Positions 875 to 64,000 of a stretch of 64,000 nucleotides of DNA are shown piece after piece (the stretch's first letter is position 1; every line of letters starts with the position of its first letter). This stretch comes from Octopus vulgaris (lineage: Eukaryota), in contig OX597816.1 of NCBI GenBank assembly GCA_951406725.2, positions 44,392,001-44,456,000 on the forward strand, written 5' to 3'. The notes under the pieces are model-generated. The model was not told the origin of the DNA, did not search any database, and worked only from the letters and a program-made list of their open reading frames with translations. The translations under genes and the position numbers were made by a program.

Positions 875-6240
<5,366 letters not shown>

Positions 6241-6687
6241 GTGACGGCGACGATGACCACGAAAATTACGGTGAAGGAGTTGAAAGAAAACTACACCTTT
6301 CTCGCCATCATCATCATCACCGATGTGCTCATTCGGAACATATAAATGATGCCCAATGAGTAAATATTTTAAAGTGACTGAGAAAACAAGAAAATATTTA
6401 TAGAAGTATGTATGTTTTTAAGAGAGACGAGGAGAAAACAAGAAAGAGAAAGAGAGAGAGAGAGGGACAGACAGAAAGAAACAGAGACGGAGAGGAAGAG
6501 AGAATGAGGCACAGCAAATAGGTTGGGGATGTTGAGAGTGAGAGAGAATTATAGGGAAATGAGAGCAGCGGTGATAAAGAATAGTGTAGACAGTCTGAAA
6601 GTAGTCTGGGAGACAGCGTGGAAAAAAAACCGAAAGAAAATGAAGACAAAAATAATAGAATTTAGGTATAGAGTAGACATGGATAAT

Positions 6688-7068
6688 AGAAGAAGGAGAA
6701 GAAGGATATAAAGAAGAAGAAGAAGAAGAAGAAGAAGAAGAAGAAGAAGAAGAAGAAGAAGAAGAAGAAGATGAAGGAGAAGATGAAGGAGAAGGTGAAG
6801 AAGAAGAAGGAGAAGAAGAAGAAGAAGAAGAAGAAGAAGAAGAAGAAGAAGAAGAAGAAGAAGAAGAAGAAGAAGAAGAAGAATAGCGCGAGGAAGAAAG
6901 GGGAGAAGGAAGAGAAAGAGTTGAATGAAAATAAAATTAATGAAGAGAATAAAGAGGTGAAATAATGAGAAGACAAAGAAATAGAAGGAAGTGAAATGAG
7001 AAGAAGAAGAAGAAGAAGAAGAAGAAGAAGAAGAAGAAGAAGAAGAAGAAGAAGAAGAAGAAGAAGAA
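6688..7068. repeat. Long (GAA)n polypurine tracts
   Basis: Directly visible. Confidence 0.95.
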
Positions 7069-7627
7069 AAATAATGAAGAGAATGAGAATGAGGGGAAGA
7101 CGAGAAAATAGGCGGAATGAGAAAAAGAACAACAGCAACAAATAAAATACGAAGAAGAAAAGAAAAAGTAAAAGAAACGCACGTGCACGCATGCGTGTGT
7201 CAAATTTCGTTGCAAAGCATAAGACATTTGCCCAAGGTCTCGTGAATCTGAGATCACGTGATCACGAATTGAACTGTTTTTTTTTAACTATTAAACCATA
7301 TTAAAGATAAAAGGAAATGACTAAAATTTGGTAACATCATTAATTTCGAAAATTCATTTGCAGGGCTGTGGTATAAATGACGTATGACAACAAAAATTGA
7401 TTGCAAATTTTTCTCTTAGTTGAAAACAGAAAGCTTAAAACTTAACAGTGTATGTTTGTGGTTCTCAAAGAAAATATGGGGAGATAATTTTAAGCAATTA
7501 GGAATTAATCTCTGAAAATTAATTTAGAAGCTTAGATGAAGAGAGGCTTAATCTTTGTTTGCAGGCAGACACGGAAACAGCAATGAACTTGTTTCGGTGA
7601 ATTTAGTTAACATCAGCATCTCTCTCT

Positions 7628-8037
7628 CTATCCGCTCAGTCGAAGTCGACTCTCGGTCACTCGTTGGATCAGTGTCCTCCAGTCAGTTCTATCCTGGGCT
7701 ACTTCGTTCAGATTGGCTATGTCCATTCCGGTATCCCTCTTGATGGTGTCAAACCAGCGGGTTCTTGGTCGGCCTCTTCCTCTCTTGCCACTGACCATTC
7801 CGAGCATGATGTCCTTCTCCAGGGATTTTCTCCGCATATTATAACTGAAATATGCCAATCTATGCTTGGTGATCCTAGATTCTAGCGACATTTTCGGCCT
7901 TATCTGCTTAAGAACTTCTCCATTGGTGAGCCTCGCTGTCCATGGAATGCGTAAAAGTCTTCTCCAACACCAAAGCTCGAATGCATTAATTCTCTTCTGG
8001 TCAGCTTTCTTTAGTGTCCAGGTCTCACATCCATATT
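7628..8037 (-). mobile_element. RTE-clade (BovB-like) LINE, 3' terminal fragment
   Basis: Open frame YGCETWTLKKADQKRINAFELWCWRRLLRIPWTAR...SLEKDIMLGMVSGKRGRGRPRTRW...DRTDWR...ESRLRLSG, typical of the RTE/BovB ORF C-terminus. Confidence 0.92.
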
Positions 8038-8064
8038 GCTAGATTTTTTTTAAATGCATAAAAA

Positions 8065-8633
8065 GGCACATGCTTGAATGTGTAGTAAGAAGTTAACTGC
8101 TCAAAAACATGGTTTGGGGGTTCAGTCTCACTGCCTGGCCCCCTGGCCACAGCCGACCTAAGCCTTGTGAGTGGATTTGGTAGACGTAAGCTAAAAGCAG
8201 CCTGTGGTATATGTGTGTGTGAGCTTGCATGCATGTGTGAGTGTGTGTGTGTGTGTGTGTGTGAGCTTGCATGTGTGTGTGTGTGTGTGTGTGTTTGTGT
8301 TCGTGTTTGTCCTCCACCACCGCCGGACAAACAGTGTTGGCTTGTTTACGTCCCCGAAAACTTGCTATTCGGCAAAAAGCAGACGATTGAATAAGCCCCA
8401 GGCTCAATGGTAAAGAAAAAATAAGCACATGAATACTGGTGTCGATTTGTTCGACTAAAGCTTTTTTATAAGTTGGCCACAATCTAATGACTGAAACAAG
8501 TAAAAGATAAAAGACGTTCTGGGTTCAATTCCACTGCGTGGCACCTTGGGCAAGTGTCTTCTAGTATAGCCTCAGGCCGACTAAAGCCTTGTGAGTGGAT
8601 TTGGTAGACGGAAACTGAAAGAAGGCCGTCGTG

Positions 8634-8708
<75 letters not shown>

Positions 8709-8900
8709 TTGTGTGTCTGTGTTTGTCTTCCAACATCGCTTGACAACCGATACTGGCGTGTTTACATCCCCTTCACTAGCGGTTCGGCAAAAGAGACCAA
8801 TAGAATAACTACTAGGCTCAGAAATAATAACTCCTGGGGTCGATTTGCTGGACTAAAGGCGATGCTCCAGCATGGCCGCAGTCAGATGACTGAAACAAAA
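8065..8900 (+). mobile_element. Two adjacent copies of bipartite SINE family A (internal TA/TG microsatellite)
   Basis: Shares CCACTGCGTGGCACCTTGGGCAAGTGTCTTC...GTGAGTGGATTTGGTAGACGGAAACTG and the 3' CCAGCATGGCCGCAGTCA blocks with the copy at 15138. Confidence 0.85.
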
Positions 8901-9307
8901 ATAATACTTTACTATAACATTATTTATTTAATCGAGTGTCTGCCTATTTTTTTTTTTTTTTTTTGCGTTATCTTACATTATATAAACCACGGAGTCCGTT
9001 CGACAGCATTTTCGGATTTGAGATATATTTCACTGCAATATCTTGCGCATATATCTCCCAGTTTCTTTCGTCGATTTGCAGCATTGTTAGAGCATTTAAC
9101 AAACTATCTTACAGCGTGTATTTACGGTCCGTTAAATTACATTCTGTCTCGAAATCGTACTCAGGTTAACATTGCTATTCATCCTTTATGATATACTATG
9201 GAACCAATCAAAGACTAAGGGCGATGCAATTTAATATACCCTCCTTCCAAAATGTGAGCTCTTGTACCTGTCTCAGAAGTCAGTATTGAATAGCAGTTGC
9301 TGTTGTC

Positions 9308-9828
9308 TTCTTCTTCTTCTTCTTCTTCTTCTTCTTCTTCTTCTTCCAATCAGGACTCACGCCATTAGCCACATAGAATAATCTCTAATTGGAGCCCACT
9401 CTAAGCTACTAAGAATGCGTGTGGAAACTTAGAGATCCACCCCCCACACGCGATAGACTGGCGGTTGCACGGGCGCGAAAGCTACGTTGTTATCCTCATT
9501 CCGTAAACGGTGTTTTTTTAACGGATGGAGAGCTGAACCATCCTGGGGTACAGAGGATTCGCAATCCAGAAAAGGGTCTGAAGGTTTACCACACCATAGA
9601 GGGTTACACCATGGTTCCTCTGCTTTGTGGCAGAAGTAGGAAGAAAGAGTGAGAGAAATTTGTGTTGAAAGAGTACAGCGGGGTTCACCACCACCAGCCC
9701 CCGCCGGAGCCTCGTGGAGCGTAGGTGTTTTTGCTCAATAAACACTCACAATGCCAGGCCTGGGATTCGAAGCCGCGTTCTTACAACTGCGAGTCTGCTA
9801 CTCTAACCACTGACCCATTGCGACTCCA
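9308..9828 (-). mobile_element. tRNA-derived SINE family C head with an alternative 3' body and (GAA)n tail
   Basis: Minus-strand head GTCGCAATGGGTCAGTGGTTAGAG...TTCGAATCCCAG...GTGAGTGTTTATTGAGCAAAAACACCTA is shared with the 21065 and 44365 copies. Confidence 0.75.
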
Positions 9829-12515
9829 CAGTTGCAGTTGTTGTTGATGTTTTCGACACTGCCGCTACTGTTGCTCTTGCTGTTATTGATATTACTGCTA
9901 CTATTCTTGTTATTCTTGCTGCTCCTGCTGCTATCATTGTTTTTGTTGTTGTTGTTCATTTTCATGTTATTGTTGTTGTTGCTGTTGTTGTTGTTAAAGT
10001 GGAACTTATAACACCATGTAGTATTCAGTTAAGTAAATTTAGGTGTTCTGTTTTGGAATCCCGCTTAGCTCAAGATCACCTTTCATCTTTCCAAAGTCGA
10101 TAGAATAAAGTACCGATGAAGTACAGGTATCAATTAAACCAATACAATCGATTATTTCTATCCCCGCCCGAACTATAAAGCATTGCACCTATGTATAAAA
10201 TTCACCTTGTTGGCTTGTGTTTTCCTTTTTAGATTCCTCTTTTTGTTTCGGCTGTTATTTTGCTCAAGATCAATTTTGATTTAGAGAACCTATAATCAAA
10301 AGCCTTTCTAGTCCTGATCATTTCCACTTTTGCTTCAGAAAATATCTACTTTTACTTTTATAAGGCGGTAAGGTGTCACACGAGTATAGTTTGTTACAAT
10401 TTCTAACAGGCCAGGCAACCACATAGTGGTCCTCTCATTGACTACAGGTTGATATAGTTTTTCATTGTTTTACATTATTGTTATTGTTGTTGTTGTCATT
10501 GCTATTTCAGTATTGTTTTTGTCGTTATTCCATTCATTGATATGGAATGACCATATATCCTTTTTAGGTTTTCTAGACTACATTTTCTTTTCTAAACTAC
10601 ATTTTCCAACCAATGTATCCTTCCATACTTTAAATCCTAGGCTATGATTTGTAGGATGTTTAGCTGTTATTTCTTCCAGATCGAAGGACGACATATCGGC
10701 TGTCTTGACTTGTTTTATAGATATATTTAACTACTGATTCTTCTTAACACTTTTTTGTGCATAAGGGATGTAGTGTGACGATTTAAACGAAAGGGGAGGA
10801 ACAGGACCTATGACACTTTTCAGGATCTCCAAGATCGCCAGTAAGAAGGATGGAGACATGTCACAAATATTTACAACAAAGTAGATTCTTCTCTGCTTAA
10901 TGCAACCATGGACAAGATGGTTGTAATAAACCGGGCTTTATAAAGCGTAACACGCCTTCAGTCTACTGCATATCACTCAAAAGGGATCGATCAGCCTGCG
11001 GCTATGCTACAATGGGACTTGCATTGAAGCCGTGTAAAGGGATCGAACGTGCAACTACGCAGTTACTAAACGAACTTAAACACACCGCCAGGTTAGCATC
11101 CCCTTTGTTGCTTGCTTTCACAGCTGTTATTTATTTCAACTCTGTATTCTTTCATTTTTTTCTTCATTGTTACTTGTGTTCTTACCAAGATGTTTGATCT
11201 AATTCTTGGTGTTGCAATTGTTGATGTGTTTCTTGTTGTTACTGTTATTGCAGCTGTTGTTATTGTCGCTTTTTGTAGAGATTTTTTTTTCCTGCTAAAT
11301 ATCACGTTGTTATTTTTGTTTTTATTTCCGAGTCGCTATTTTTTTATCTTAATTTTTGTTGCTGTTTTTGCCGAGCAGCTATTTCGTTACTGTAGCTTTT
11401 GTTATTGCATTTTTCTTCAACCACACCTAGTGTTTATTGCTGAAGAATTTACCAAACATGTTCCTGTTGTTATAGTTGTTGTTATTGCTATTTTTGTTGC
11501 TGCAATTATTGTTTATGTTGTTGCCGATGTGGATATTGTACCCCTCTAACACATACTTCCCTTTTTTTATTACTGACATATATTGCTTCATCTTTTCGTT
11601 ACTCTTGTCCCTTTTATTATTGCAACAGCTGTTATTATAGTTGTTGCTCATCTTCTTGTATTCCAACACACATAAATTTTGCTGGTGCTGGATTTTGCAG
11701 TGCCAGTTCTTAGCCTTGTTGCTGCAATATATTTTTTTTGCGGCTGCTTTTATTTTTTTGTTATTAGTATTGCATTCTACCACACTTTACTTCATCTGAA
11801 CGTAAAGCAAAGCGATATTGTTTAAAAACTACATACTTTCGAAATCTTTGCCGTAAGCGTCCTTAGCATTTGATCTCTGCATTATATCCAACTTAAGAGG
11901 AGTTGCATAGTGTTTTAGTGCTTCCGGTACATTCTAACTCGCATCCTGTTTACCATCAAAATATAATGCGTTGACGTTTTTCATTTGTTATCGTTTAGAT
12001 GTATGAGATGTGTATGTGCTCATAAACTTCTGTGTGTGTTAATATATAATACATGTATATTGGTTTTTACAACATTTATACATATGTTACACATATATGT
12101 GTGTGTGTGTGTGTATACATACATACATACATACATACATACATGCATACATACATACGTATATATGTGTATATATATATAGATATATACATATGTGTAT
12201 ATGTATATATATATATATATATATATAAATATATACACACATACATACATATATTGATTTATATGATACTGATATATATATATATATATATATATATAGA
12301 TATAGATATATACTCGTACATCTATTGATTTATACGATATTAATATGTGTGTGTCTGTGTGTATGTGTGAAACAAATATTCATATGTACCTGTGTATGTA
12401 TAAATATACACACAGAGACGTACAAACACCAATAAACGCACACGTATACATATGTACATAGACGCTCATATATACATTTATATACGCACACACATACATC
12501 TAAATGCACACACAC

Positions 12516-12558
<43 letters not shown>

Positions 12559-12596
12559 CAATATTTATATTTATTTAGTTATATCTCATTATATTG

Positions 12597-12632
<36 letters not shown>

Positions 12633-13009
12633 ATTATATACGTACATGTATACACATACGCACAAGATAGATATATTGAACTTTCTTATTTTTACGGTTT
12701 GCTTTATTTCGTCAGACTAACAATACAATCGCACCAAGAAACAGAGTCAAAGAATACGATACATAAACACACACTTTCCACACTGGCCCATGTAAATAAT
12801 GCAACAAATATCATTTTTTAAAAGCAAAATGCACTAAAACGTTTGAGTAGTAGAATGTAATCTTTTTGCTCTAAATAATTCATTGAAAAAGGCACATCTA
12901 CCAGTGGCAACCTGGTAACAACGATATCAATGTGTAATTTGTTTGAGAATCATTAACATGAATGATGAGGAGGAAGACTACTACGACGACGGTAATAACA
13001 ACAGTAACA

Positions 13010-13082
<73 letters not shown>

Positions 13083-13099
13083 TAACAATGATAAAAAAA

Positions 13100-13381
13100 A
13101 GGTACTGAAACCTATTTGAAAGTGATTCCAGGCTTACCATCCCTACAGGAAGTGCAAAAAATCGTATTAACTGGAACGGCTCATGTCCTGAGAAGAGCAT
13201 TATCGCCGTGAAAACAACATCCATCCATGAATTTATTTATTTATTAATTTTTAAATACATATTTTATCTGTGAATTTGCGCGTGTAATCTGGAAATGCAT
13301 ACAATGAGCTTCTCTGCCCTAGGTGTATGCAAAACACCCGGCGAGAAACGGAAGAAAATTTGAAGAAAGAAGGAAAAAACA
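13100..13381 (+). mobile_element. R4/Dong-like LINE 3' end in (AAT)n
   Basis: Translates PGLPSLQEVQKIVLTGTAHVLRRALSP*. The 3' UTR matches 54700-54776. Confidence 0.75.
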
Positions 13382-13427
13382 TAATAATTATAATAACAAT
13401 AATGATCATGATCATGATGATCATGGT

Positions 13428-13950
13428 GCAGTACCAGGCAGTGGCGCTCATGACTTCTGATTTTAACTGATTGGAAGTGTTATCATGTATATTGTTTTGT
13501 CTTGTTAGAAAGATGGACCACAGCGAATATTCTACTCAATACCACTCATTTCTTTGTCAGTTGTTTGACCTTAACCCGTTAAGCATGTCCCTTACTAGCT
13601 GACGATATGTGCATCTCTGATCACGAGCAGAAGTCGTGTTGAGAGGAATTCTTTGGGGTTTTGATGATACGCCTTTGGAAAAATGGATGTTGCTTTCAAC
13701 ATTTTTAAATAAGCCGTATTTAGAGACCTTTCGAGCGGGATGGGCTACTCGACCAGAAGAAAATTCTAGCTGGGCCCATCTGCAAGGTCATGCGCTGTTT
13801 ATCTTGATATGAGATCACCATATCGCGCACATATGGTTGTGATACTTGTGCTTGGTGTACCCTTATCAGACAGGTAGTCATGGTGGGTATACTGGGCTTC
13901 GTATATTTTATCCTAGTGTCACGTTGATGGTATGCACTACTCTCTCGCTT
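13428..13950 (+). mobile_element. ~530-bp non-coding interspersed element (family D), copy 1
   Basis: Starts GCAGTACCAGGCAGTGGC and ends ...CTCTCTCGCTT before AATAAT. Homologous to 26816-27350 and 36886-37437. Confidence 0.85.
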
Positions 13951-13954
13951 AATA

Positions 13955-15066
13955 ATAACTGGAATAAAATCCAAGCAATTAATACATGGGCGATATCACC
14001 ACTTCGGTATGCAGCGGGAATTACAAAATGGCAAAATAGAGAATTGAAGAAAATGGATACCAAGATCAGAAGACTGTTGACAGTACCCAGAGCCTTCGAC
14101 CCTAAGAGTGACACCGATAGGATGTACTTGTGCAGAATATAGGGTGGAAGAAGTTTGATCAGTTGCCAGGTCTGTATCGAAGCAGAGGAAAACATCCTAG
14201 TGTTGTATATAAAAAATTCCTTGGAGCCATTAAACAAGAAATGAACAAAAAAATAATTAAAACAGAAAAGCATCGAAGGAAAAGAAAATGTACGGTCCGT
14301 TTGCCTTAGATGTGAACTGAAACACAGATAAGTATGAGGTGGAGTGACTTGAAGATAGAGTCAGAATCACTCATATGTCCTGCTCAGAAACAGGCGTTAA
14401 GGACCAACTATATGAAGTGCAGAATAGACAACACTACCGATAGCGACTAATGCAGAATGTGTTGTGAGAGGGGTGAAACGGTATGGCACATCGTCAGCGA
14501 AGGCCCAAAGTTGGTACAATGTGGGTACAAAAGACGCCATGACAATGAGACAAGAGCGATCCATTGGGAGCTCTGTGGAAATCATAGCCTGCGAAGTGTA
14601 AAGACGAGGTATGAGCAAAATCTTGTGGGCTGCAAAGATCCAGTGCGACCACCCGACCAGACATCGGGACCGAACATTGCTGTGGTCAATAAAAAGGAAA
14701 GAATATGTATGATAATCGACATAGCATGCCTCGGTAACAACAGGATCAATGTGAAAGAAGAAAACATTAAAAAAAAAAAACTATGACGAATTGTAGTGGG
14801 AAATACGAAGATTGTCGTCAATGAAGCGAGTACAGGTGATACCAATAGCAGTTGATGCACTTGGAAATATCAGCAGTCAACTACCAACATGGTTGAAAAA
14901 GATAGGGGCAAGTTTCAAGGTAGAACTCAAAAAAATATCCGCATTGCTTGGAGCTGCAAGTATTCTTCGCAGGGTTCGTGAAGCATGACCAGTAAACAAG
15001 TGTCATCTTAGTCTGCTGGCTATGGACACCTTCCATCATACTCAGCAAAATAAGCTGGTAGTTTTC

Positions 15067-15070
<4 letters not shown>
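13955..15070 (+). mobile_element. Degenerate R4/Dong-like LINE 3' fragment
   Basis: NKIQAINTWAI...RY, PKSDTDRMY, CRMC...ETVWHIVS, RRHD and IIDIAC motifs with stops and frameshifts; ends at (AAT)n. Confidence 0.88.
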
Positions 15071-15137
<67 letters not shown>

Positions 15138-15537
15138 GGCGCAGGAGTGGCTGTGTGGTAAGTAGCTTGCTAACCAACCACATGGTTCCTGGTTCAGTCC
15201 CCACTGCGTGGCATCTTGGGCAAGTGTCTTCTGCTATAGCCCCGGGCCGACCAATGCCTTGTGAGTGGATTTGGTAAACGGAAACTGAAAGAAGCCTGTC
15301 GTATATATGTATATATATAAATGCGTGTGTGTATGTGTTTGTGTGTCCCCTAGCATTGCTTGACAACCGATGCTGGTGTGTTTACGTCCCCGTCACTTAG
15401 CGGTTCGGCAAAAGAGACCGATTGAATAAGTACTAGGCTTACAAAGAGTAAGTCCCGTGGTCGATTTGCTCAACTAAAGGCGGTGCTCCAGCATGGCCGC
15501 AGTCAAATGACAGAAACAAGTAAAAGAGTAAAAGAGT
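15138..15537 (+). mobile_element. SINE family A, near full length
   Basis: tRNA-like head (TGGCTGTGTGGTAAG ... GGTTCAGTCCC), internal TA/TG tract and AGTAAAAG tail; more than 10 related copies in the window. Confidence 0.9.
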
Positions 15538-15552
15538 TTAATAATAATAATG

Positions 15553-15585
<33 letters not shown>

Positions 15586-15766
15586 TCTACTAAAGGGGTC
15601 TAATCGATCATATCGACCCCAGAACGTAATTGTTAGATATTTTATCGATCCCGAAAGAATGAAAAGCAAAGTCAACTAGATAAAATTTGAACTCAAGACG
15701 TAAAGACGGATGCATTCCTGCTAAGTATTTTACCCGGCGTGCTTACGATTCTGCCGGCTCGCCGCC
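15586..15766 (-). mobile_element. SINE family B, diverged
   Basis: Reverse complement matches the copies at 27407 and 60678. Confidence 0.75.
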
Positions 15767-16307
15767 TAATAATAACAACAAGCGGGACACGTGAATATTT
15801 CACGGAATTAATGGTAAACCCTATTTGGTTATTTCTGCAAACTTTATTTAAAAAACCTGAAAGTACAGCCTAAGTTGTGCATGTATGGAAAGATAGTCGC
15901 TCATTTGATATTCATTAAAAAGTGAAAGAAACTGGAATACGACGATTACTTAAAGGACTTTACATATATTTTTTATATATTTTATGCGCAATTTTATATA
16001 CTTAATACACAACACTCATAAAATAATTATTCACTCCTATTTTTCCATTTTCCCCATAAACAAAACATGAATATCCCGTACGTATGATACAGCCCGCAGT
16101 TAAATCGTACATAACCGCCACGTAAATAAGCGTCAATATTTTCCGTGAATTGCAGTTATGCGCATGCGTTAAGGGATAGGTGATAGGTGATATAAAAAAA
16201 CTTAGTTCAATAAAAAAAAACTACACTTTTCACTATCCAATCACCACCACCATCACTACCATCTCCCCCTCTCTCTCTATCTCTCCCTCATCTCATTATT
16301 ATTATTA

Positions 16308-16399
<92 letters not shown>

Positions 16400-16400
<1 letters not shown>

Positions 16401-16870
16401 GGTAGTCTTACCCAATGCGCCTATTATGATAGGAATTGTTTCTGTTTTTAGACTTCACATACGAGTTACCTCTATTTCCAAGTCTTTGAATTTTGAATGT
16501 TTCTCCATTTCTTTTAGAGAAGCGTTGTCATCTGTTGGCATTGATACATCGATTAGAAAGCATTTTTTGTTGATCATCTCTGACATCAATATCCGGCCTA
16601 TTGTTCTTAATTCCTCTCTCTCTCTCTCTGTATTGACATAGTATGGTTGCTTTCTCATTGTCTGTAACCTTTTTGTGTGTGCCTATACCATCTTTCTCCT
16701 GTTATTATTCCATAGTGTTGCCATACCATTCAGTGTATACAGATCCCAACTTTGTCACGTCTATGAATATAATCCTTCTTAGTCAGGACTGGGCAGGCAG
16801 AGACAATATGGTTTATAGTTTCTTGTCCATCTTCACATATTCTGCAGATTATTATTTGCGGATAAACTTT
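16400..16870 (-). mobile_element. R4/Dong-like LINE fragment, same family as 39180
   Basis: CRICEDGQETINHIVSACPVL...HRRDKVG and CFLIDVSMPTDDN...KFKDLEIEVTRM; abuts (ATT)n. Confidence 0.88.
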
Positions 16871-17565
16871 CAGTGAGATATAGTGTCTAATGAAATGAAG
16901 CTGTTGCTTAGCTATTATTTTTCTCAAGCAACAAGTATCGGCTTTTCTCAGAGCATTGGTAGCCTGGCTCAATCTTTCGGAATTGCGGAGATGTACTTGC
17001 ATAGCAAGTGACCTAATCTGAGATCGTGTGCTGGAACGAAAACAACTGCAGCGTGGAAAGTGTTTATAAGCCATTTAAGAAACACACAAAAAACGTTTGA
17101 TTCACTTCAACATTTAAATTTAATCTGACAAAATTCTGTGCTACACATTCAGTCAAAAATATTTCTAAATGATTAAAATATTGTGTACGTCAAAATGTCG
17201 ACGCTCATTTTGTTAGAGGGCGGGAATGCTATGTGTGTGTATATGTCAAATATAGCAGACGTGTGTTTGTGTTGATTGACACGCCATGATATTCATTATA
17301 CGTGTGTATTCAGTATGTGTGCTGACGTCACGGGAGCCATGATTTTTTTTATGTCAAAAAATAAAAAGCAAAAAATATTTTAAATCGTTTTCATTAATAG
17401 AGCTCTAAATATTACAAAAATTTCTACTGCACTGCCGTAGGTAAGTATGAAAATAAATATGCAAAAAAAAAATTAAGATAGACTATACTATTTCTGAGAT
17501 ATTTCGGGTAGAAACATCTTGTAGAGTTTTAGTATTTATATATATATATATACATATATATATAA

Positions 17566-17760
17566 GGGGGAAAATTCCCAAAAAACCAAAAGACGAAGAC
17601 TGGTGGTGCAGACAACAAACAGATATATTAGTATAACGCTCGGGAAGTGAAAACGTCTTTAACGTTTCCAGCCTACGCTCTTCCACAGAAAGAAACACAG
17701 AAAGAAACAAGGAGAGAAAGTAAAGAATGTATAGTGGTAGCGATCTATCATGGCGAATGT
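17566..17760 (-). mobile_element. Penelope-like/HHR-variant repeat family E, copy 1
   Basis: Homologous to 35560-35720 and 59250-59418; the minus strand contains CTTT-CTGTGGA-AGAGCGTAGGCTG-GAAACGTT-AAAG. Confidence 0.65.
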
Positions 17761-17946
17761 GTGTGTGAGGGGGGAGAGAGGGAGGAGAGACAGAGACTAA
17801 GTGGATGAGTGAGATCTTTCTGAATTTGCTGATGCAATCAACAACAAAACATTTATTGCGCATACACACACACACATATATATGTATGTATGTGTGTGTA
17901 TATATATATATCTATATGTATAATATGCGGATACATATATTTACAT

Positions 17947-17978
<32 letters not shown>

Positions 17979-18001
17979 GTACTTATATATAATTACATAG
18001 T

Positions 18002-18033
<32 letters not shown>

Positions 18034-18035
18034 TG

Positions 18036-18070
<35 letters not shown>

Positions 18071-18804
18071 ATATATACATATATATCTATATATGTACTT
18101 ATGTATATAAAGATATATATATATATATAAGTATATAAATATGTGTGTGTGTGTGTGTGTTTACACTCACAGAGACGCAGACAAACTCAGACGAATACAC
18201 GCACATTTATATATAATTGATTAGAGATTTTCTACACAGTAAACCTTCGTTAATGAAATATTTCCCAAGAGCAATGAATGTGATAGTAAGAAACTTAGTG
18301 AAATTTATGACTGTGTCAATGTAGATTAAATGTCTAAATATCTAGTATGATTTGCTATTATTAAAATTCTATTTTACCATCTAAAAGCGAAAACAGCTTT
18401 AGACTATACATTTATAATATTTCTGTCTACACAATGAAAGAACTGGTTTTTAGTCATCATCAGTCGGTTGGTTCCTGTTTCGAATCTAGACTTTAAATAT
18501 GTGAAATAGAACGGATGATGATTTAACATAATTGTTACATTTGAGTACAGTGTCATATATAGCGATCGTTCTTCTGTCATAGCATTCTGTAAAAATGAAA
18601 ATAGCCAGTCTGGAGAGTATAGCCCTGATATATCAAAATACATCATGGTCTTGTCATAACTGGACTGCATTTGAATATAGTTGTTCTCAATTAAATTAAA
18701 AATTAAAATTGCTAGACTGGAGAATATAGCCCTAACATATAAAAATGCAGCATAATTGGACTGCATTGTCAGTTAGGTCTTTCCTTAGTGATAATAATAA
18801 TACG

Positions 18805-21496: not shown

Positions 21497-22241
21497 TATA
21501 TAGGGCGAGCGAGAGAGAGAGAGAGATAGATATACAGATCATTTATTCTTCTTTCGATGTAGTTGAACAACCAAACCCAAAACACTCAGGATTTACATCA
21601 CGAGTTACGCTATTCATCCTTTCGATCACTAAATACAGGTCGTGGAACGCGAGTCTTCCAGCCGCGTGGTTACCCATTTACAGCTGACTGGATTGGAGCT
21701 AGAGCGAGGTGAAATTAAGTGTTTTGCTCAAGACTACAACGCACATAGATTATGCATATAACAAACATTTGTATAAACACGTTGCCGTACTATATATTTT
21801 ATTTGAACGTGTTCAGTCGTGAAGGGCACCAGCTATGCATCGGTGCAGTCGAGTACTCCTCCGCATATCACAACTTTACTTGGTGCTACGCTGAGAGAAA
21901 TGTGTGGACGCCTAAAAGTATGTCTATATATTCTCACGACGATATAGGCACCTAAAACATTTTACGAAAGCATCGCACATATTACCTTGCTATACTCGCT
22001 CACAGATGATGGTCAGTTGTAATTTGTTCTTCACTATAATAGGAAATACTAAAATTTTAAAAGGCGTAGGCATACCTGCGTGGCAAGAATTTTGCTTCTC
22101 AACCATATCGATCCGAGGTCCCACAGTATGGCACGTTGGGTGAGTGTCTTCTACTCTATCCTCCGACCGACAGAGTAGATTTGGAAGACGGAAACTGAAA
22201 GAAGCCCGTCCTATATATCCATCTGTCTGTTTATATCTATC

Positions 22242-24103
22242 TCGCTTCTATACGTATTGACTCTCGAGCCATTATTGCGGAAGCTGGCAACTCTGAGGGG
22301 CATCCCGCGAGAACTGGGATGCGGGACGAGCGTGTCTGCATACGCGGACGACGTCACCGTCATAGTGTCTAGCCACGAGCACATCGAGCAGGTCGGCGAG
22401 ACACTGAAAAACTACGAAGCGGTAACAGGAGCGAAAATCAACCGGCAAAAATCAGTGGGCTTGCGACTCGGCACCTGGAGAAGCAAGCCCATGCCGTCCA
22501 CCAGCGCCTCCGTCGTGGGACGCTGGACGGACGGTTCGGTCGAGTTGCATCGGATCTGGTTTGGTCCGGACCTCCGAGTGGAGAAGAACTGGAACGAGAT
22601 AACGAGTAGGGTGGTCACTCTCGCCCGGCCGAGAGGAAACTGTCCCTAAAAGGTCGGGCGGAGGTGGCGAACTCGTACATCGCGTCCGTCATCTACAACC
22701 GCTTGACCGTCGTGCCTTGTCCCGACCCTACCATCACCAAACTAGAACGCATTCTCTTTCGCTTCTTGTGGAAAGGATGCGTCCCGATGGTCAGGCGATC
22801 CATTTGCTGTCAACACCCGTTAAAAGGAGGACTGGGCATGCCGTGGTTGATGATGCGCAGACACGCGCTGAGACTGCGACACCTCAGGCTCTACGTAGAC
22901 GACGGTGAACAGGTGTGGTCGCCGTTTGTGAGGCACGCTTTCCCGCAACTCGTCTCCATGACCGATCTGCAGTCGTGGATCAAAAAGAGGCCGAGGAAGG
23001 GCGAATGGCACCGCGAGTGCCGCGTTGCTCTCAAGCAACTCTGCCGTCCCGGGTCGAACTTCAGTGACTCCAACACAACCAAAGCATTCTATACGGGATT
23101 AGTGGAGGGAGGTACGACGACGAGCTCGGGGCGAACCTGGACGTCGACGAGGATTACCTGACCCGCCTGTTCGGGACGACTTTCGGGCCAGAGCCCATGG
23201 ACAACTTCCAGAGATCCCTGGCCTGGCTATGCTACCGAGAAGCGCTACCCGTTCGGGATAAGCTCTACAGACACGGCTCGAGAAACACTAGGCCGACCTG
23301 CCCGAGATACGGTCAGAGCGACGAAACTGTTCTGCACGCACTCGTGCAGTGTCCAGCAATTTCCGACCTGTGGGCTTATGTCAAACAACTACTGTCACGT
23401 GTGGGACGTGTCGGTTTATCAGCGGAGTCTATCGTCAATATTGTCACGCCTCCTTCCTTCAAATGGGAAAGGAAGAGCTATTTTCATCATCCTTGTGGCT
23501 ATGGCGAAAGAATGTATCTGGGGGACGCGTCTGAAAGGATTGGAGACAAACACTTTCCTCTCTGGTCAATCTCTCATCAACTTCTTCAAGTATCACTTGA
23601 AAAGGAAAGTGAGAGTAGAGAGGCAGTTTTGTCTAGCGAATATTTTAAAAAAAGATGGGTGAATGTAGCAAAGATGGCACGCATGAATGACGAAGCCACC
23701 TTGAGCATAATCCTATGAACCCAGAAATTGAAAACAGAGGGTTACCCACTTGCAAACATATGTGGTAACATGTAACAATACTGACCGAGGTTACCGTGGT
23801 CTTTTCCGTAGGCTTTTCTTCCCACGGATAAACCTTATCTGCTTCCCACTTTACACCGTACATCATGACACTGTGATACACGATCCCTATTGATGGGTTT
23901 TTTCTTTTTCCCCTTTTTTCCTTTTTTCTCCTTTTATCTTTTTTCTTTTGTTTCTCTTCCTTTTTTTTCTTTTTTTCTTCTTTCTCTTTTACGATCCCTT
24001 TTGATCGAAAACCTACCCCACATTTTTTTTTCCAAAAGAAGAAAAGCTCTACTTTGTAATCTGTCCCGTCTGTGTGCAGCCCTGTGTGGCTAATGAAGAA
24101 ACA
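22242..24103 (+). mobile_element. Tx1/L1-clade LINE, 5'-truncated ORF2 (RT C-terminus and zinc finger) plus 3' UTR
   Basis: LEPLLRKL...SAYADDVTV...GAKINRQKS, FRFLWKG...GGLGMP, ALPVRDKL...CPR...ETVLHALVQC, with frameshifts and a pyrimidine-rich 3' UTR. Nested between the two halves of a SINE A copy. Confidence 0.93.
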
Positions 24104-37699: not shown

Positions 37700-38850
37700 A
37701 CAAAGACACACAAAAACACTTGGGGTTTACACATAATGAAAGGATAAAATGATTATTAGAAAAAAAGGACGTATACACAATATAAAATGAAATGTAAGGA
37801 CTTATACATAGGTTTAAAGAAAAGGGGAGAGGATGATTGACATATAGCTCTCCGGATACAGAATGACCTTTAGAGATAATCCAGGAACCCCGTTGTCCGA
37901 AATTTCACTGAACACCAAGCGCAAGTGCCCTTCTCCAATTCCTTCTCTCCCACTCATAGGCCCATACCTAGAGAGGTATTATCCACTCTTGTCATTTTCG
38001 CAACTTTCACCCACCTTCCAATAAACTCACTCGAGGACAGCACTTCCTTCTCCACTCTCAATTTCCTGTGAGAGCTCTTCCAAAGAGGAATCTATCTGTC
38101 CTCATGCCTTTCAGCCCTGTCCACCAAACAACCTTTTTCGCCACAGCTACCAGACAAAGGAAAACTGCCTTGCCTGCCCGACTGAAGGAGGGTGGCAGGG
38201 CAATCATCTCTACAGACTCGGACGATAAACGAATCCGTTCTATACGTGACAGCAACTGTTCGACATAACTCCAAAATCAACAATGCTTGGATACTGAAAG
38301 AGTGCGTGCAGAACGGTTTCGTCACTCTACGCGCACCATGGACAAGCCCATCTGACAAACCATCCATGCCTGTAGAGTTTTCTCGAACGAGTAGAGTCCC
38401 CCCGCCACTGTACCATTGTCAGGCCAAGGACATCTGGAAACTATCCATTATAACTATCCATTATAACTTCGTTTTCGTCACCACCCAGAAACTGCACAAG
38501 AACGTCTCGTCGCACTTCCCCGCCACTAATCCTCTATAAATTTCTAAAGCGGAACATACACCCATCTCATTACCCGACTTGAATAGCGCTGTGAGCGCCT
38601 GATGACGTCCTAGGTGCCAGGTGCTCAGTGACGTTCTTTTCTCCACCCAAGACTGCAGCTCCGCCAAGGACACGAGGTGCGGAAAGATGAGCTTCACAAA
38701 CGAAGCCCATACAAGCTCACCATCCAGAAATCGTAGCAGGTGGCGTAACCTAAGAGCGTGTCTGCGCATTAGGAGCCACAACATACCTAATCTGCCATTC
38801 AGAGGATGCTGGCAACAGACTCACTGCCTTACCAATGGAAAGCTTCCCTA
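37700..38850 (-). mobile_element. Second Tx1/L1-type LINE subfamily, degenerate 3' fragment
   Basis: CCQHPLNG...LMRRHALRLRHLLRFLDGELVW and LSRIERIRLSSESV...AVAKKVVWW align with the element at 22242. Confidence 0.85.
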
Positions 38851-38864
38851 TGCTGGATCATAGA

Positions 38865-39124
38865 TAAAGCATGCCCTATTGACAAGGTATGCGATAACGG
38901 AGAAAGAAAAGTCGGTAGATATGACAGGTTGATAAAAATCTTGAGAAGTACATGGGGCAAATAGGGGCTGCAATAAGGGTGGAACCCTTGCAGAAAACAG
39001 CACTAGTTGGAACAGCTCAAATACTCTGGAAGGTGCTCGGAAAATAAGAGGTGTTATCTTAGTTCACTGGTAGTGAACAGCTGACACCGTAGTACATCTC
39101 CAGCATTAGAAGCTGTGCAAAGGC
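38865..39124 (+). mobile_element. R4/Dong-like LINE 3' end
   Basis: LQKTALVGTAQILWKVLGK*, then 3' UTR and (AAT)n. Confidence 0.7.
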
Positions 39125-39156
<32 letters not shown>

Positions 39157-39179
39157 TAATAATAATAATAATAATAAAC

Positions 39180-40354
39180 GAAGCCCAAAATCTGACATAG
39201 AAAGACTATATATACAACGTATAGAAGGTGGTAGAGGCCTTATACACCTGGAAAACTACTATGAAATAACCACCATAGGACTGCAAAAATACCTACTTCA
39301 GAAGGAAGGAAAACTGATCCAGATAGCAGCAAAACACGAGCAAAACAAAAAACTGTTCTCAGTATTTAAGGAAGCTGACAAATACAAACAAGAAATCATA
39401 CCACCTAATAAACACAAAGAAGAAGAAGAAGATGATGAAGAAACAACAAAAGCTATAAAACAAATGAAATCCAAACTAAAAATAGAACAGCAACGAGCCA
39501 TGATAAAACGATGGCAAGAAAAGCCCCTTCATGGTAAATACTGCACTAAACTAAACGCAAAAGAAATAGACAAAGAAAAATCCCAGCAATGGTTGAGAAG
39601 CTCAGGACTCAAAGCAGAAACAGAGGGATTTTTAATTGCAGCACAAGACCAAAGCCTCCCCACCAGAAATTACCAAAAACATGTAATGAACAGAAATATT
39701 ACAAGTAACTGCAGAATATGTGGAGATGGACAAGAAACAATAAATCATATTATCTCTAGCTGCCCAGTCCTGGCTAAGAAGGAATATATTCACAGACATG
39801 ACAGAGTTGGAACCTACATACATTGGAAGCTATGCCAACATTATGGAATAACAACAGAAAAAAGATGGTATAGGCACACACCAGAAAAGGTCACAGAAAA
39901 CGAGAAAGCAACCATACTCTGGGATATGCCGATACACACAGATAGAGAAATTAAGGCCAACAGACCAGATATAGTTGTCAGAGATCATGAAGAAAAAAAT
40001 GCTTTCTAATTGATGTATCAATACCGGCAGATGACAACGTGTCTCTAAAAGAAATGGAGAAACTCTCAAAATACAAAGACCTGGAAATAGAGGTAACCAG
40101 AATGTGGAATCTGAAAACAGAAACAATTCCTATCATAGTAGGTGCATTAGGCATGATAAAAAAATATTCAGACAAATACATAACAAAAACACCAGGACTT
40201 ACAAACACATATAACATACAGAAAATTGCACTACTAGGCACTGCACACATCCTACGCAGAACACTTTCCATACAATAACCATCAGAGCATCACAACAAAT
40301 CACAGCACATACCCAAGGCACACAGAGCTGCGCTCGGTAGTGAAGTGAAAGCAC

Positions 40355-51956: not shown

Positions 51957-52205
51957 TAGATTTCGAATTTTATTTAGCTAATAAAATAATTTGCTAGGCG
52001 AAATTCACATCAGTGACCGCGCCATAACATTAACATATAATTTAGAGACAAATAGCACGCGTCTCATCATTATATATTACAATTTTTCAAATTCACCACG
52101 CATGCGTTATTTGTCACTAAATTAAATGTTAATATTATGGCGCGGTGACTGGTGAGAAATTCGCCTAGCAAATTATTTTATTTGCTAAATAAAATTCGAA
52201 ACCTA
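51957..52205. mobile_element. MITE-like fold-back element with ~100-bp inverted arms, TA at both ends
   Basis: TTTCGAATTTTATTTAGC...TTTGCTAGGCGAA...ACCGCGCCATAA is mirrored by its reverse complement. Confidence 0.8.
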
Positions 52206-52656: not shown

Positions 52657-52727
52657 TTATATATATATATGTATGCGTGTGTGTGTGAATATATAATATA
52701 TTTACACACACATATACATATATCTAT

Positions 52728-52761
<34 letters not shown>

Positions 52762-52763
<2 letters not shown>

Positions 52764-53275
52764 AGCTTCCAGGCGTTTAATGGCATAAGGGATGTGCTCA
52801 AGAGAAGGTTGGACAGGACCACCCGCGCCAACCTCATTAACAGTGCAGTTCTACCTGAAATGTTATATGGTTGTGAAACATGGGCTACCACAAAGAGAGA
52901 AGAGCAGAGACTCGTAACGGCTCAAAGAGCCATGGAAAGGTCAATGCTTGGTATCTCGTTGAGAGAGCACATCAGTAGCGAGATCATCAGAAAGAAGTCC
53001 GGCGTAAGAGATGTCATTGCAGAGTATACACGCAGCAAGTATAGATGGGCTGGACACGTCGCCGGGCTCACCGATAATCGGTAGACCCACGCAGTTGTCG
53101 AGTGGTACTCGCACGAGCGGAAAAGACCACCCACAAGACCTCCACGACGGTGGAGTTACGATTTCAGGAGGACGATTGGGATCACGTGGATGAGAAGGGC
53201 GCGAACCAGAGACGAGTGGACAGCATGCTGTAACCAGCAGTGTCAAATGGACGCCTGATGGACTGGTCGGTCAAG

Positions 53276-57625: not shown

Positions 57626-57736
57626 ATAGTAAATTTATATATATATACACACACAAACACACACATATACACACACATCCGCACACACACGCGCATATGT
57701 ATACATATATATATATATATATATTATTTATATATA

Positions 57737-58605
57737 TATGTACTTGTGATATTTTTCTGTATTTACCCCCAAACCTTCGTGAGCTGTCTGGAGTAAACAT
57801 TATCTGAGAGAAATTTTCTTTAAGTAGTAGAAATGCTAAGAAAAAATTTTTTTGGCTGTTATTTCTACTAAGTTCAGTATGTGGCAAAGTAATTTATTTT
57901 ACTAAGCCCTAATTATATAATGTAATATTTTAAATTCGCCTTAAATGGTCCTTTTACATACTGAACACTTGGTGAAATTGATTAATTAATTAATTTTACC
58001 CTCAATTGTTGATATTATAATTCATTTCTCTCGGTCATACTGCCTCGGTTCTCGCGGTTAAAATATAATGTTTGCTAGATAGACCACGTGGGTGGAATGG
58101 GGAGTGCAGAATTTTACGCCTGCGCATTTTGAATTTGTTGACACTGTTTAGTTGGAGTGGTTCATCTGAAGCGACAAGTTCGCTGATAGGTAAAGTTCCT
58201 TCTTTTTAGTGTTTCCAAATCCAAATTAAGAAATTTTGAGCTGACGAAAGAAATGCTGATTTTATTTGGCTAATCTTGAAACGTTGACGTACTCAAACGA
58301 TCTATGTACTTGTGATATTTTTCTGTATTTACCCCCAAACCTTCGTGAGCTGTCTGGAGTAAACATTATCTGAGAGAAATTTTCTTTAAGTAGTAGAAAT
58401 GCTAAGAAAAAATTTTTTTGGATGCTATTTCTACTAAGTTCAGTATGTGGCAAAGTAATTTATTTTACTAAGCCCTAATTATATAATGTAATATTTTGAA
58501 TTCGCCTTAAATGGTCCTTTTACATACTGAACACTTGGTGAAATTGATTAATTAATTAATTTTACCCTCAATTGTTGATATTATAATTCATTTCTCTCGG
58601 TCATA
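57737..58605 (+). repeat. 566-bp-period partial tandem repeat (~1.5 units) in (TA)n, HHR-bearing
   Basis: 57737-58039 is repeated almost exactly at 58303-58605. Confidence 0.93.
58235..58297 (+). ncRNA. Type I hammerhead ribozyme (predicted cleavage after 58291)
   Basis: TTTGAG-CTGACGA-[AAGA..GCTGA..TTGGC..TCTT]-GAAA-CGT-TG-ACG-TA-CTCAAA. Perfect 6-bp stem I, intact core and GUA triplet. Confidence 0.88.
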
Positions 58606-58630
58606 TTATAATTAATTTCTCTCGGTCTGT

Positions 58631-58674
<44 letters not shown>

Positions 58675-60907: not shown

Positions 60908-62671
60908 GATTAGATGGGAGATAAAATGTCAGAACAAATTTGCATTAACAAACAGATATATATATATATACATTAGACACTTAACAAACAATATTAGTTA
61001 GCTATACACTTATTATGATGTCAATAGCAAGGTCAATGACTATCATCACTACTCTGGGAGTTAGACCATAAGATGAAAAGTCAAGCTAACTGAGACATGC
61101 ATTAGCTTCAACGACCATAGCAAAACCAAGACCAGATAATTATAACCTGCAAAGAGGAAACTTATGTGGTCGCTCAACTCATCTTTTATAATATCAAAAG
61201 CATCATTAGGAAAGCTACACAAAATGGAATAATAACGGCATGGGGCACATTTAATGGAGTTGAATTTCGATCATTTTAACAACGATGAGTTCTAGGTATT
61301 CCTCTTTCATTGGGGTGTACAGATTTGGTAGGAAAAGTGCTAACTTCAGCAGCAACAATTTAGATATCTTTATGTATAACTGAAGATATATTGAGTTTGA
61401 ACACAATTTTGTACAGATGAAGGAGAATAGTAAGTTACCAATAGAATGCTACTTGTACCAAGAATTCACAAACGACAACGGGCTATACCACAGTTGTATG
61501 AGGTTAGATTTGACAATCGAATGGAAAGATATCAATGGAAGATGCCAATGGATGATTTTGACAGAATTGAGTATATGATTTTTTTTTAAATATTCAAGAT
61601 GAAATAAAAAATATATGTGCAAGTAACATGGCATGAAAACCTTGTAGTTTCGTTTCGTATTAAGTCCAAAAACTAGATAAGAAAAGACCTAATAAGCACA
61701 TTTCGGGAATTCAATATTAACCATGCAACAACTGCAATATAAGCATAATCAAAGCTTTAGAAGTTAAGTTAAACTTGTATTTAGATACATATTAAACGTA
61801 CACAAAATAGTTTGAAAACTTATGTTTAACGATAATGATTCCTAGTATCTTTGCACTATAGTTAGAAAGTCTGTTATTGATATGTTTGAAAGATTATCAA
61901 ATATATCATCGTAATATAACAACTTTGAAAAAGCTTTTCATTTCTCAGCCAATTGTTAGTGAAATGCAGACAGAAATGAAAAATTGCATTAAGTTTTCAC
62001 GTTATCAAATTACTATATATCATTTTATAGAATTAACATAAAGATCACCTACCAAATAAATAAACTGAGTATCATAGCAGGTTGACTAAACTAATTGAAG
62101 TAGTTTTGTTGCCTGAATTAACGGTAAATGTCTGAAGTGGTTAGTCAAGAAGCATGAGTTATATGCTTAGAAAGCCATACAAAGTCGGAGAAGACCTATG
62201 TTGGCAGGAATAGTAACTTACCAATAGAGTGCTACTTGTACCAAGAATTCACAAACGAGAACAGGCTATACCACAATTTAATGAGGTTAGATTTGACAAT
62301 CGAATGGATATTTCGCGTAATCTTAACTTGAAACTGTCATATATATACAATCAAGGCCTTTAATATCTATCATAAATTATAGGTAACTTTATTTGAAATT
62401 CAAGTACAAAAGTGAACTGACTCTACATAAATAACATTTATATAACAAATTTTACGGTAAAGGCAGAGCACACCGATAGTTGTTTGTTTGTAAATATAAA
62501 AGAAGTCAAGGACTTAAACAAAATCTTCTGACAAGTGAAAAAGGCAGCTGGATATTCTGAAAGGCGGATTTCAAAGTCGTATTCAGATGATATTCAAATA
62601 TTACGTCGTCTTATGATGAGCAACAGTTATGAAAATTGACAAATTGAAAAGTAGTGTACTTAAACAATGTA

Positions 62672-62769: not shown

Positions 62770-62853
<84 letters not shown>

Positions 62854-63018
62854 AAAGATAAATGCGATACAATAAAATTAATTATAATCGCCGGTGTACC
62901 AGTACACGCCATATATTATACATATATCATTACATTCAAGGCGAAGAGTGCACTAGATACACAATAGCTGGATAAATTTAGTGAGATGAAAATTAAAAAC
63001 TTTTACAAACTTAACTTT

Positions 63019-63091
63019 TCTTATACTGCAGTTTCGCCAAATTCAGTAATAAAAATAGTATTTATTTACTCAGGCTGGCTCTTCAGTAAGA
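63019..63091 (-). ncRNA. Type I hammerhead ribozyme, monomer 1
   Basis: Minus strand TCTTA-CTGAAGA-GCCA...TGGC-GAAA-CTGCAG-TA-TAAGA. Stem I is TCTTA/TAAGA, stem III is palindromic ACTGCAGT, and the triplet is GUA. Confidence 0.88.
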
Positions 63092-63422
63092 TTCCTGTTA
63101 ATGATGGGAAGACCATATCAATAGACCCATGTGCGTCTATCGAAATGCTCTTTCTAAACTATTCAAAACACTGCGCAGACTCAGAACAAACCCGACAAAA
63201 TAGGGGATTGTGGTATATCGTCTAACGGTCAGAAATTTATCGAGAGAATATGTAAACAAAGATAAATGCGATACAATAAAATTAATTATAATCGCCAGTG
63301 TACCAGTACACGCCATATATTATACATATATCATTACATTCAAGGCGAAGAGTGCACTAGATACACAATAGCTGGATAAATTTAGTGAGATGAAAATTAA
63401 AAACTTTTACAAACTTAACTTT

Positions 63423-63495
63423 TCTGATACTGCAGTTTCGCCAAATTCAGTAATAAAAATAGTATTTATTTACTCAGGCTGGCTCTTCAGTAAGA
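63423..63495 (-). ncRNA. Type I hammerhead ribozyme, monomer 2 (one stem I mismatch)
   Basis: As monomer 1, but the 3' stem I strand reads TCAGA. Confidence 0.82.
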
Positions 63496-63826
63496 TTCCT
63501 GTTAATGATGGGAAGACCATATCAATAGACCCATGTGCGTCTATCGAAATGCTCTTTCTAAACTATTCAAAACACTGCGCAGACTCAGAACAAACCCGAC
63601 AAAATAGGGGATTGTGGTATATCGTCTAACGGTCAGAAATTTATCGAGAGAATATGTAAACAAAGATAAATGCGATACAATAAAATTAATTATAATCGCC
63701 GGTGTACCAGTACACGCCATATATTATACATATATCATTACATTCAAGGCGAAGAGTGCACTAGATACACAATAGCTGGATAAATTTAGAGAGATGAAAA
63801 TTAAAAACTTTTACAAACTTAACTTT

Positions 63827-63899
63827 TCTTATACTGCAGTTTCGCCAAATTCAGTAATAAAAATAGTATTTATTTACTCAGGCTGGCTCTTCAGTAAGA
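63827..63899 (-). ncRNA. Type I hammerhead ribozyme, monomer 3
   Basis: Same sequence as monomer 1. Confidence 0.88.
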
Positions 63900-64000
63900 T
63901 TCCTGTTAATGATGGGAAGACCATATCAATAGACCCATGTGCGTCTATCGAAATGCTCTTTCTAAACTATTCAAAACACTGCGCAGACTATATATATATA

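Follow-up and report, generated by a model that had tools for sequence, protein, structure and literature searches.

Animal non-LTR retrozymes were defined by Cervera & de la Pena (2020; PMC7229834), who describe units of 150-450 bp and propose Penelope-like elements (PLEs) as mobilisers. In the account given by a recent preprint (Li, Clavereau & Pollet 2026; 10.64898/2026.07.22.740005) the link to PLEs is drawn, for vertebrates, from co-occurrence and pLTR kinship; units range from 51 to 972 bp, and cleavage is reported for one out of nine retrozyme dimers tested and for none of the other eight. As for the PLEs themselves, PMC11167929 describes a PLE protein which in vitro cleaves AT-rich DNA on either strand and begins reverse transcription at two internal sites defining the tail, ribozyme cleavage being unneeded for insertion. 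Dimeric hammerheads and a U3-A8 core variant are described for PLEs in PMC4209133, and the features given for PLE insertions in PMC8557442 and PMC3846280 are tails of 30-40 bp at one end, inverted copies, a (TA)n bias and, as a proposal, self-priming. Mobilisation of animal retrozymes by PLEs has so far been argued from co-occurrence and sequence kinship; in the family described below, the insertions themselves bear the marks of PLEs.

Architecture of the repeat block

The window, i.e. the whole analysed stretch of 64,000 nucleotides from Octopus vulgaris (contig OX597816.1, positions 44,392,001 to 44,456,000 of the forward strand), contains a repeat block with the following features, given in window positions:

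57695..57739: (TA)n on the upstream side, the left half of the microsatellite used as target, overlapping the element start by TA microhomology
57737..58039 (+): first 303-bp repeat, 5'-truncated insertion start, 12 nt past the unit's hammerhead cut position
57872..58000 (+): conserved fold with two putative priming sites, first copy, offset by 566 from the second
58040..58302 (+): remainder of the 566-bp unit, single-copy here, non-coding, with the hammerhead at its end
58235..58297 (+): hammerhead motif of type I, with GUA followed by the predicted cut (58291/58292)
58281..58290 (+): stem III region, 3 bp plus tetraloop in the monomer; self-complementary 10-mer, predicted dimer
58303..58605 (+): 303-bp repeat, second copy, with which the next unit starts
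58438..58566 (+): RNA fold, conserved, with site A inside the closing stem 58438-58448/58522-58532 and site B just after the hairpin 58537-58566
58480..58494 (+): site A, TA-like, one class of family 3' ends (also 57914-57928)
58573..58585 (+): site B, TA-like, the other class of 3' ends (also 58007-58019)
58603..58636 (+): private stutter, in which 58578-58602 recurs (25 bp, 1 mismatch), followed by 9 nt of a site-B end leading into (TA)n
58633..58670: downstream (TA)n tract

A preliminary description of this DNA had correctly recognised the direct repeats of 303 bp, which lie 566 bp apart and differ at 3 positions, as well as the (TA)n tracts flanking the block. The stutter which it had noted at the 3' end is present, although not as a single piece of ~23 bp: a second copy of 25 bp (58603-58627) is followed by a third piece of 9 nt (58628-58636), the latter representing a normal end of the family. 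Among the 86 family loci compared, no other locus shares this stutter. The gap between the two repeats amounts to 263 bp, and the 566-bp unit contains no ORF of at least 110 aa except for one per strand which enters from the flanking microsatellite. The window copy holds one hammerhead only and is not “active” by the two-motif rule as set out by Li et al. (2026).

Judging from the sequence, we consider it about 80% probable that the block represents 1.5 head-to-tail units of an abundant non-coding hammerhead repeat, likely a non-LTR retrozyme, which likely owes its copying into (TA)n tracts to a Penelope-like RT + GIY-YIG protein acting in trans.

A dispersed family with two alternative 3' ends

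A first look at the 2.8-Gb genome yielded 1834 candidates; the best 40 of these 1834, which were scored, are mostly 95-100% identical. One exact 22-mer of the unit, situated inside the fold region around sites A and B and used to find loci, has 2701 matches, while a control 22-mer has none. Its first 100 matches correspond to 56 loci over 95 Mb of contig C1, all of which were retrieved and constitute our unselected sample; scaled from it, the family comprises ~1,500-1,650 loci. The copies are dispersed over many contigs and comprise, besides the young subfamily present in the window, others with units ~80-87% identical to it. Their 5' ends are variable due to 5' truncation, and up to ~6 units follow each other head to tail per arm (L043, with one arm of 3.3 kb). 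Contigs of four presumed-RNA runs cover the unit, three of the four crossing the tandem joint, and are silent on ends, strand, level and circles.

The 566-bp family is real, young and abundant, and comes from a known class, that of the animal non-LTR retrozyme, a non-autonomous PLE. All retrozyme features testable by sequence were found in it, and it appears to act like a non-autonomous PLE. Both the retrozyme reading and the (TA)n preference put forward in the preliminary description are supported. The word “permuted” used there misses the main point, namely that 3' ends fall at two constant sites.

These two sites, A and B, are TA-like and lie about 90 nt (~87-100 nt) apart, and nearly all 3' ends run straight into (TA)n. 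Head-to-head copies make up 40 of the 56 loci in the unselected sample and single-arm copies the other 16, 13 of the latter ending at B (two of these being one duplicated segment) and three at A. Leaving out eight copies of a short derivative and three loci with an unscorable end, 29 of the 40 head-to-head loci remained for the end count. Twenty-seven of them combine A with B, two combine B with B and none combines A with A (p = 8e-7 against 0.5); an insert within or between the arms is carried by 3 of the 27 A+B loci. Opposite arms diverge by 0.70%, as compared to 0.69% for units in one arm and 1.83% for different loci (141 segments, 49 loci), so that both arms stem from one template. B arms stop near site A in 7 of 27 cases (p = 0.04, exponential null), which is no more than suggestive of a tendency to stop there. 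We regard this insertion anatomy as good genomic evidence that points to paired priming at two sites. A search of the literature revealed nothing relevant on the 566-bp family or on A+B pairing.

The short derivative left out of the end count is a fixed head-to-head form of ~230 bp devoid of a hammerhead, which accounts for 8 of the 56 loci (L036, L038, L041, L054, L065, L075, L081 and L084). Its copies share the junction and partly share the flank, the inverted product itself having been amplified.

Head-to-head copies might also arise from self-priming (fold-back) of one cDNA, or from an antisense template, rather than from two primers on one RNA. Self-priming is the proposal made for rotifer PLEs in PMC3846280, and it would agree with the near-palindromic junctions (5 of 29 within 10 nt) and with rare variants being common to both arms in 29 of 91 pairs. 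At no fewer than 6 of the 27 loci (at least L031, L035, L039, L046, L060 and L079), however, each arm has a part that the other lacks, so that DNA fold-back is excluded at these loci, and a proportion of 27 A+B to 2 same-end loci is not predicted by such a process. As the general origin of the head-to-head copies it appears rather improbable to us, although it may be the source of some of them.

The RNA of the whole 566-bp unit is predicted to fold far better than its shuffles (z = -6.7, 0 of 100 shuffles as good). The region around A and B, with a closing stem around site A and a hairpin ahead of site B, reaches a z of -3.5, and 5 of its 29 consensus pairs are altered on both sides among 10 sequences from subfamilies and more distant relatives. 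Since these 10 aligned sequences stem from few lineages, the double changes represent few events; moreover, the 22-mer by which the loci were found belongs to this very region. The fold at 58438-58566 is likely to constitute a recognition element for the reverse transcriptase.

The hammerhead motif

The hammerhead with 6-bp stem I, extended stem II and GUA site that had been announced for this block is indeed present, as a complete type I motif, at 58235-58297. Stem I pairs 58235-40 with 58292-97; the further elements are CUGACGA, a stem II composed of 4 proximal bp, a 3x3 internal loop and 5 distal bp, GAAA and GUA. A stem III of 4 bp, in contrast, would leave a loop of 2 nt and must be replaced, in the monomer, by 3 bp plus a tetraloop. 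The attribute “textbook” is likewise too strong because pair 10.1-11.1 is A-U instead of G-C and because Rfam offers no hammerhead match: at the motif region it gives six chance hits at E<=10, none of them a hammerhead, and for the entire window microsatellite-driven hits alone among the matches listed (150 of 265). The 10 nt of stem III form no hairpin by themselves and are self-complementary (duplex -10.8 kcal/mol). In this they resemble hammerheads cutting as dimers, and efficient cutting is predicted for the dimer only. Self-complementarity of stem III is found in 57 of 60 cases within the family (32 + 24 + 1, common variants) and persists while its sequence changes.

None of 5000 base shuffles of the unit contains an equally complete motif. 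A check on homologues, concerning conservation of the core and covariation of the stems, had been recommended. Core positions are kept 52/52 in four other subfamily units, as compared to 53-84% in the surrounding 30-nt bins. Stem pair counts within the family are no better than in shuffles, 36 of 500 of which score as high, with a double change in 1 of 18 pairs. Pair 10.1-11.1, with which stem II begins, does not form in 18 of 26 variants; the hammerhead alone is no more stable than shuffles (z = -0.7), and its predicted catalytic fold (-9.2) lies slightly above a non-catalytic one (-9.6).

Stronger evidence for the hammerhead than these within-family counts is provided by sister families, in which the stems are kept although their sequence is exchanged. 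A sister retrozyme family (1799 candidates, units of 578-594 bp; L252-L281) is ~72% identical to the 566-bp unit near the ends only, and loop II of its hammerhead is extended by a long hairpin. Its stem I is fully exchanged yet paired, the AAT/TAA loop is the same, and stem III is mostly self-complementary. The A/B head-to-head ends are shared between both families. A third related hammerhead variant is found in L174.

One may ask whether the hammerhead is by now a passive relic, the family spreading via uncut read-through RNA only. Genome-wide, TA-flanked starts just after the cut amount to three loci versus none and one in two control windows, so no pile-up of 5' ends at the cut is seen, in line with this idea; hammerhead mutants, as reported in PMC11167929, left in vitro insertion unaffected, and the short derivative spreads over 8 of 56 loci without any hammerhead. 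The fully conserved core, the exchanged yet paired stems of the sister families and a stem III which stays self-complementary while its sequence shifts are at odds with a relic, and multi-unit arrays require a source of more-than-unit RNA. We therefore hold such a loss of function to be unlikely. Among the 28 best-scoring loci ~6 start at most 12 nt from the cut, but this set had been selected for starting there, and a 5' start at the cut was rejected as a family rule; in the unselected sample 5' ends near the cut are limited to two arms.

Penelope-like elements and the candidate enzyme

PLEs with RT and GIY-YIG that share the (TA)n target of the retrozyme occur in the genome. Three young RT-bearing families exhibit open frames of 781, 776 and 775 aa and end in (TA)n (young loci: L128 591-5575; L213; L222; L117-L136, L212-L223). 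The 781-aa family, which possesses a cysteine motif before the nuclease, fits Neptune/Nematis by the description given in PMC8557442. Two ends 40-42 nt apart are present in the 781-aa, the 776-aa and one older family, and all three of the head-to-head 781-aa copies examined carry one end of each kind.

Each of the three frames is preceded by an overlapping frame of 450-480 aa, the canonical PLE having a single ORF; the two upstream frames tested gave no clear Pfam match. Hammerhead-like motifs with a U3-A8 type core and a palindromic stem III lie in the terminal regions of several PLE families (L250 ~4194 (+); L213 ~1355 and 7172 (+); L224 ~2203 (-)), and the 775-aa family contains a canonical core.

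The 566-bp unit forms the end of none of the 165 GIY-YIG/PLE loci screened, which belong to about eight families, the best 150 of 6,136-18,635 candidates having been scored per search. Because no screened PLE locus ends in it, the partner enzyme is one we infer. Unit matches in L094 and L174 are separate insertions at TA tracts, as seen on reading the loci, and those in L224, L250 and L183 were judged to be such by strand and position. The preliminary description had alternatively suggested a pLTR of a coding Penelope element and advised looking for a linked RT ORF. This suggestion is not supported: tblastn with three PLE proteins finds no PLE ORF in the window, the 263 bp between the repeats contain no RT ORF, and none of the 165 loci uses the unit as its own end. 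The block does not qualify as an autonomous PLE with partial tandem pLTR, no RT + GIY-YIG ORF being located between the repeats or linked to them. Nor does it qualify as a plant-type LTR retrozyme, the motif being of type I, not type III, and lying outside the 303-bp repeats.

A different matter is whether the copies are truncated ends (pLTRs) of a yet-unfound autonomous PLE, of which the 566-bp unit would be an internally deleted form. Their insertion anatomy equals that of PLEs, both of those in this genome and of those described in PMC8557442, and the PLE searches scored the best 150 candidates each. Moreover, Li et al. (2026) report that 24 of 57 Xenopus retrozyme families were matched to known elements and that 21 of 22 were PLEs. 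Against this, no continuation from the unit into a PLE ORF is found among 86 family and 30 sister loci, and units are joined head to tail up to ~6 times without any ORF. PLE fragments near 6 of the 86 family loci (L017, L052, L056, L070, L071 and L076) are flanking, those at L056 and L076 having been read and found separate. We give this explanation only a small chance for the present copies, which are non-coding; an ancestral PLE origin of the family, on the other hand, is likely. The fragment in L076 (1436-2366, -) belongs to a distant, GC-richer PLE with ~28% identity to others; it ends near a T run and (CA)n and adjoins the family copy across a TA tract.

Finally, a satellite or a DNA-level tandem duplication with a chance ribozyme-like motif, to which the AT-rich sequence and the missing Rfam match might point, can practically be dismissed in view of the dispersal over many contigs, the fixed 3' ends, the 5' truncation and the outcome of the 5000 shuffles.

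Other hammerhead families and further features of the window

The several subfamilies, the sister family and a further hammerhead family with a 404-bp unit bear out the diverse population of hammerhead retroelements that had been surmised from the window. As had been stated, the units of 566 and 404 bp bear no significant resemblance to each other: their score of 65, as compared to 193 for the sister family, is reached by 43 of 200 shuffles. Three short co-linear AT-rich matches are present near the 3' ends of both units.

The 404-bp family (window 62844-63989, minus strand; L282-L301; 606 candidates) ends in (TA)n and has a self-complementary stem III. Its 14 distinct loci have a single 3' end and include not one head-to-head copy, versus 15 of 28 for the 566-bp family chosen likewise; it may use another enzyme or one start site only.

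Elsewhere the window contains an inverted repeat of 98 bp (51957-52205, 91% complementary, 53 nt apart), which resembles an inverted element without hammerhead in L174, and a direct repeat of 101 bp (61425-61525 / 62208-62308, 93% identical, 783 bp apart). Broken frames at 22179-23718, 38461-38820, 39110-40009, 7628-8038 and 52689-53084 are presumably LINE reverse-transcriptase fragments of several families.

Proposed insertion mechanism

The insertions give no sign of cut RNA as the usual template, as far as their sequence tells; 5' ends which do not gather at the cut fit an uncut or circular one. We envisage that a PLE protein would bind the A/B fold in a more-than-unit retrozyme RNA, which may be an uncut multimer or a circle, the sequence being the same for either. 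The protein would nick a (TA)n tract on both strands, whereupon each nicked strand could prime reverse transcription at one of the TA-like sites, TA pairing helping. If both cDNAs were kept and joined, a head-to-head copy would result; if one was kept, a single-arm copy such as that in the window. The hammerhead, predicted to cut efficiently as a dimer only, would free monomers that may circularise. The single arm in the window was likely started at B and then re-primed twice ~21 nt further downstream, giving rise to the stutter; alternatively, the latter might go back to a repair event for which the upstream repeat served as template.

In a more specific version, which is tentative and, to our mind, rather doubtful, the template is a single circular retrozyme RNA of 566 nt. 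A paired PLE RT/endonuclease would prime both (TA)n strands on it at two sites defined by RNA structure and copy the circle in rolling-circle fashion. If true, the family would be a natural genomic record of this process; the tails of PLEs, their inverted pLTRs and their tandems would all go back to a single twin-priming step, and the 130-nt fold would serve PLE-driven insertion as a portable cis-element. Against our preferred reading, copying in trans by a PLE protein, speaks the A-B distance, ~90 nt being twice that in the PLEs measured here and the 30-40 nt given in the literature cited above, although a tail of 30-40 nt is a typical feature of PLE derivatives and not a strictly defining one.

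Belonging to a known class and having a ribozyme of an expected type, the family will be useful to the specialist rather than startling. Yet the near-strict A+B pairing from one template bears on an open question about PLEs, namely how tails and inverted repeats form, and a short non-coding unit with a covarying fold, together with several young candidate enzymes in one genome, makes for a testable system.

Comparison with known systems

Like the animal non-LTR retrozymes as described in PMC7229834 and 10.64898/2026.07.22.740005, the family consists of AT-rich units in tandem, which are non-coding and each contain one type I hammerhead; it has a short self-complementary stem III and a highly self-paired predicted RNA, lacks LTR architecture and has PLEs alongside. 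Its unit of 566 bp exceeds the 150-450 bp of the retrozymes described in 2020 and falls inside the 51-972 bp of the 2026 preprint. Unlike the elements as described in these two sources, most loci of the present putative retrozyme are head-to-head copies truncated at the 5' side, whose ends in (TA)n fall at two fixed sites.

With Chlamys PLE derivatives such as MRC1, as characterised in PMC8557442, the family shares its non-autonomous nature and multicopy head-to-tail insertions attributed to PLE machinery. Those derivatives, however, share 3' sequence with an autonomous family, a partner which the 165 loci screened here do not contain, and the Chlamys PLE clade is described as devoid of canonical hammerheads, whereas the hammerhead is complete here.

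The short palindromic stem III resembles that of the dimeric type I hammerheads of newt and axolotl satellites and of PLE pLTRs as presented in PMC7229834 and PMC4209133, and the weak base of stem II in several subfamilies recalls the axolotl HHR_Amex2 as it is presented there. In contrast to the newt and axolotl motifs as depicted, stem II is long, with a conserved 3x3 internal loop, and an A-U pair or a mismatch takes the place of G10.1-C11.1.

With EN+ PLEs as described in the cited papers the family shares partial tandems and inverted 5' copies, a pair of alternative ends of which only one carries the extension, microsatellite or AT-rich targets and a hammerhead in the terminal region; compared with these, it is without ORF and its tail measures ~90 nt instead of 30-42. 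The start sites of the Anolis PLE are, according to its description, not homologous to the cut DNA; here both start sites are TA-like and therefore can pair with the (TA)n target. While no strand difference in start site is reported for the PLE in vitro, the genomic copies of the 566-bp family pair A with B almost strictly.
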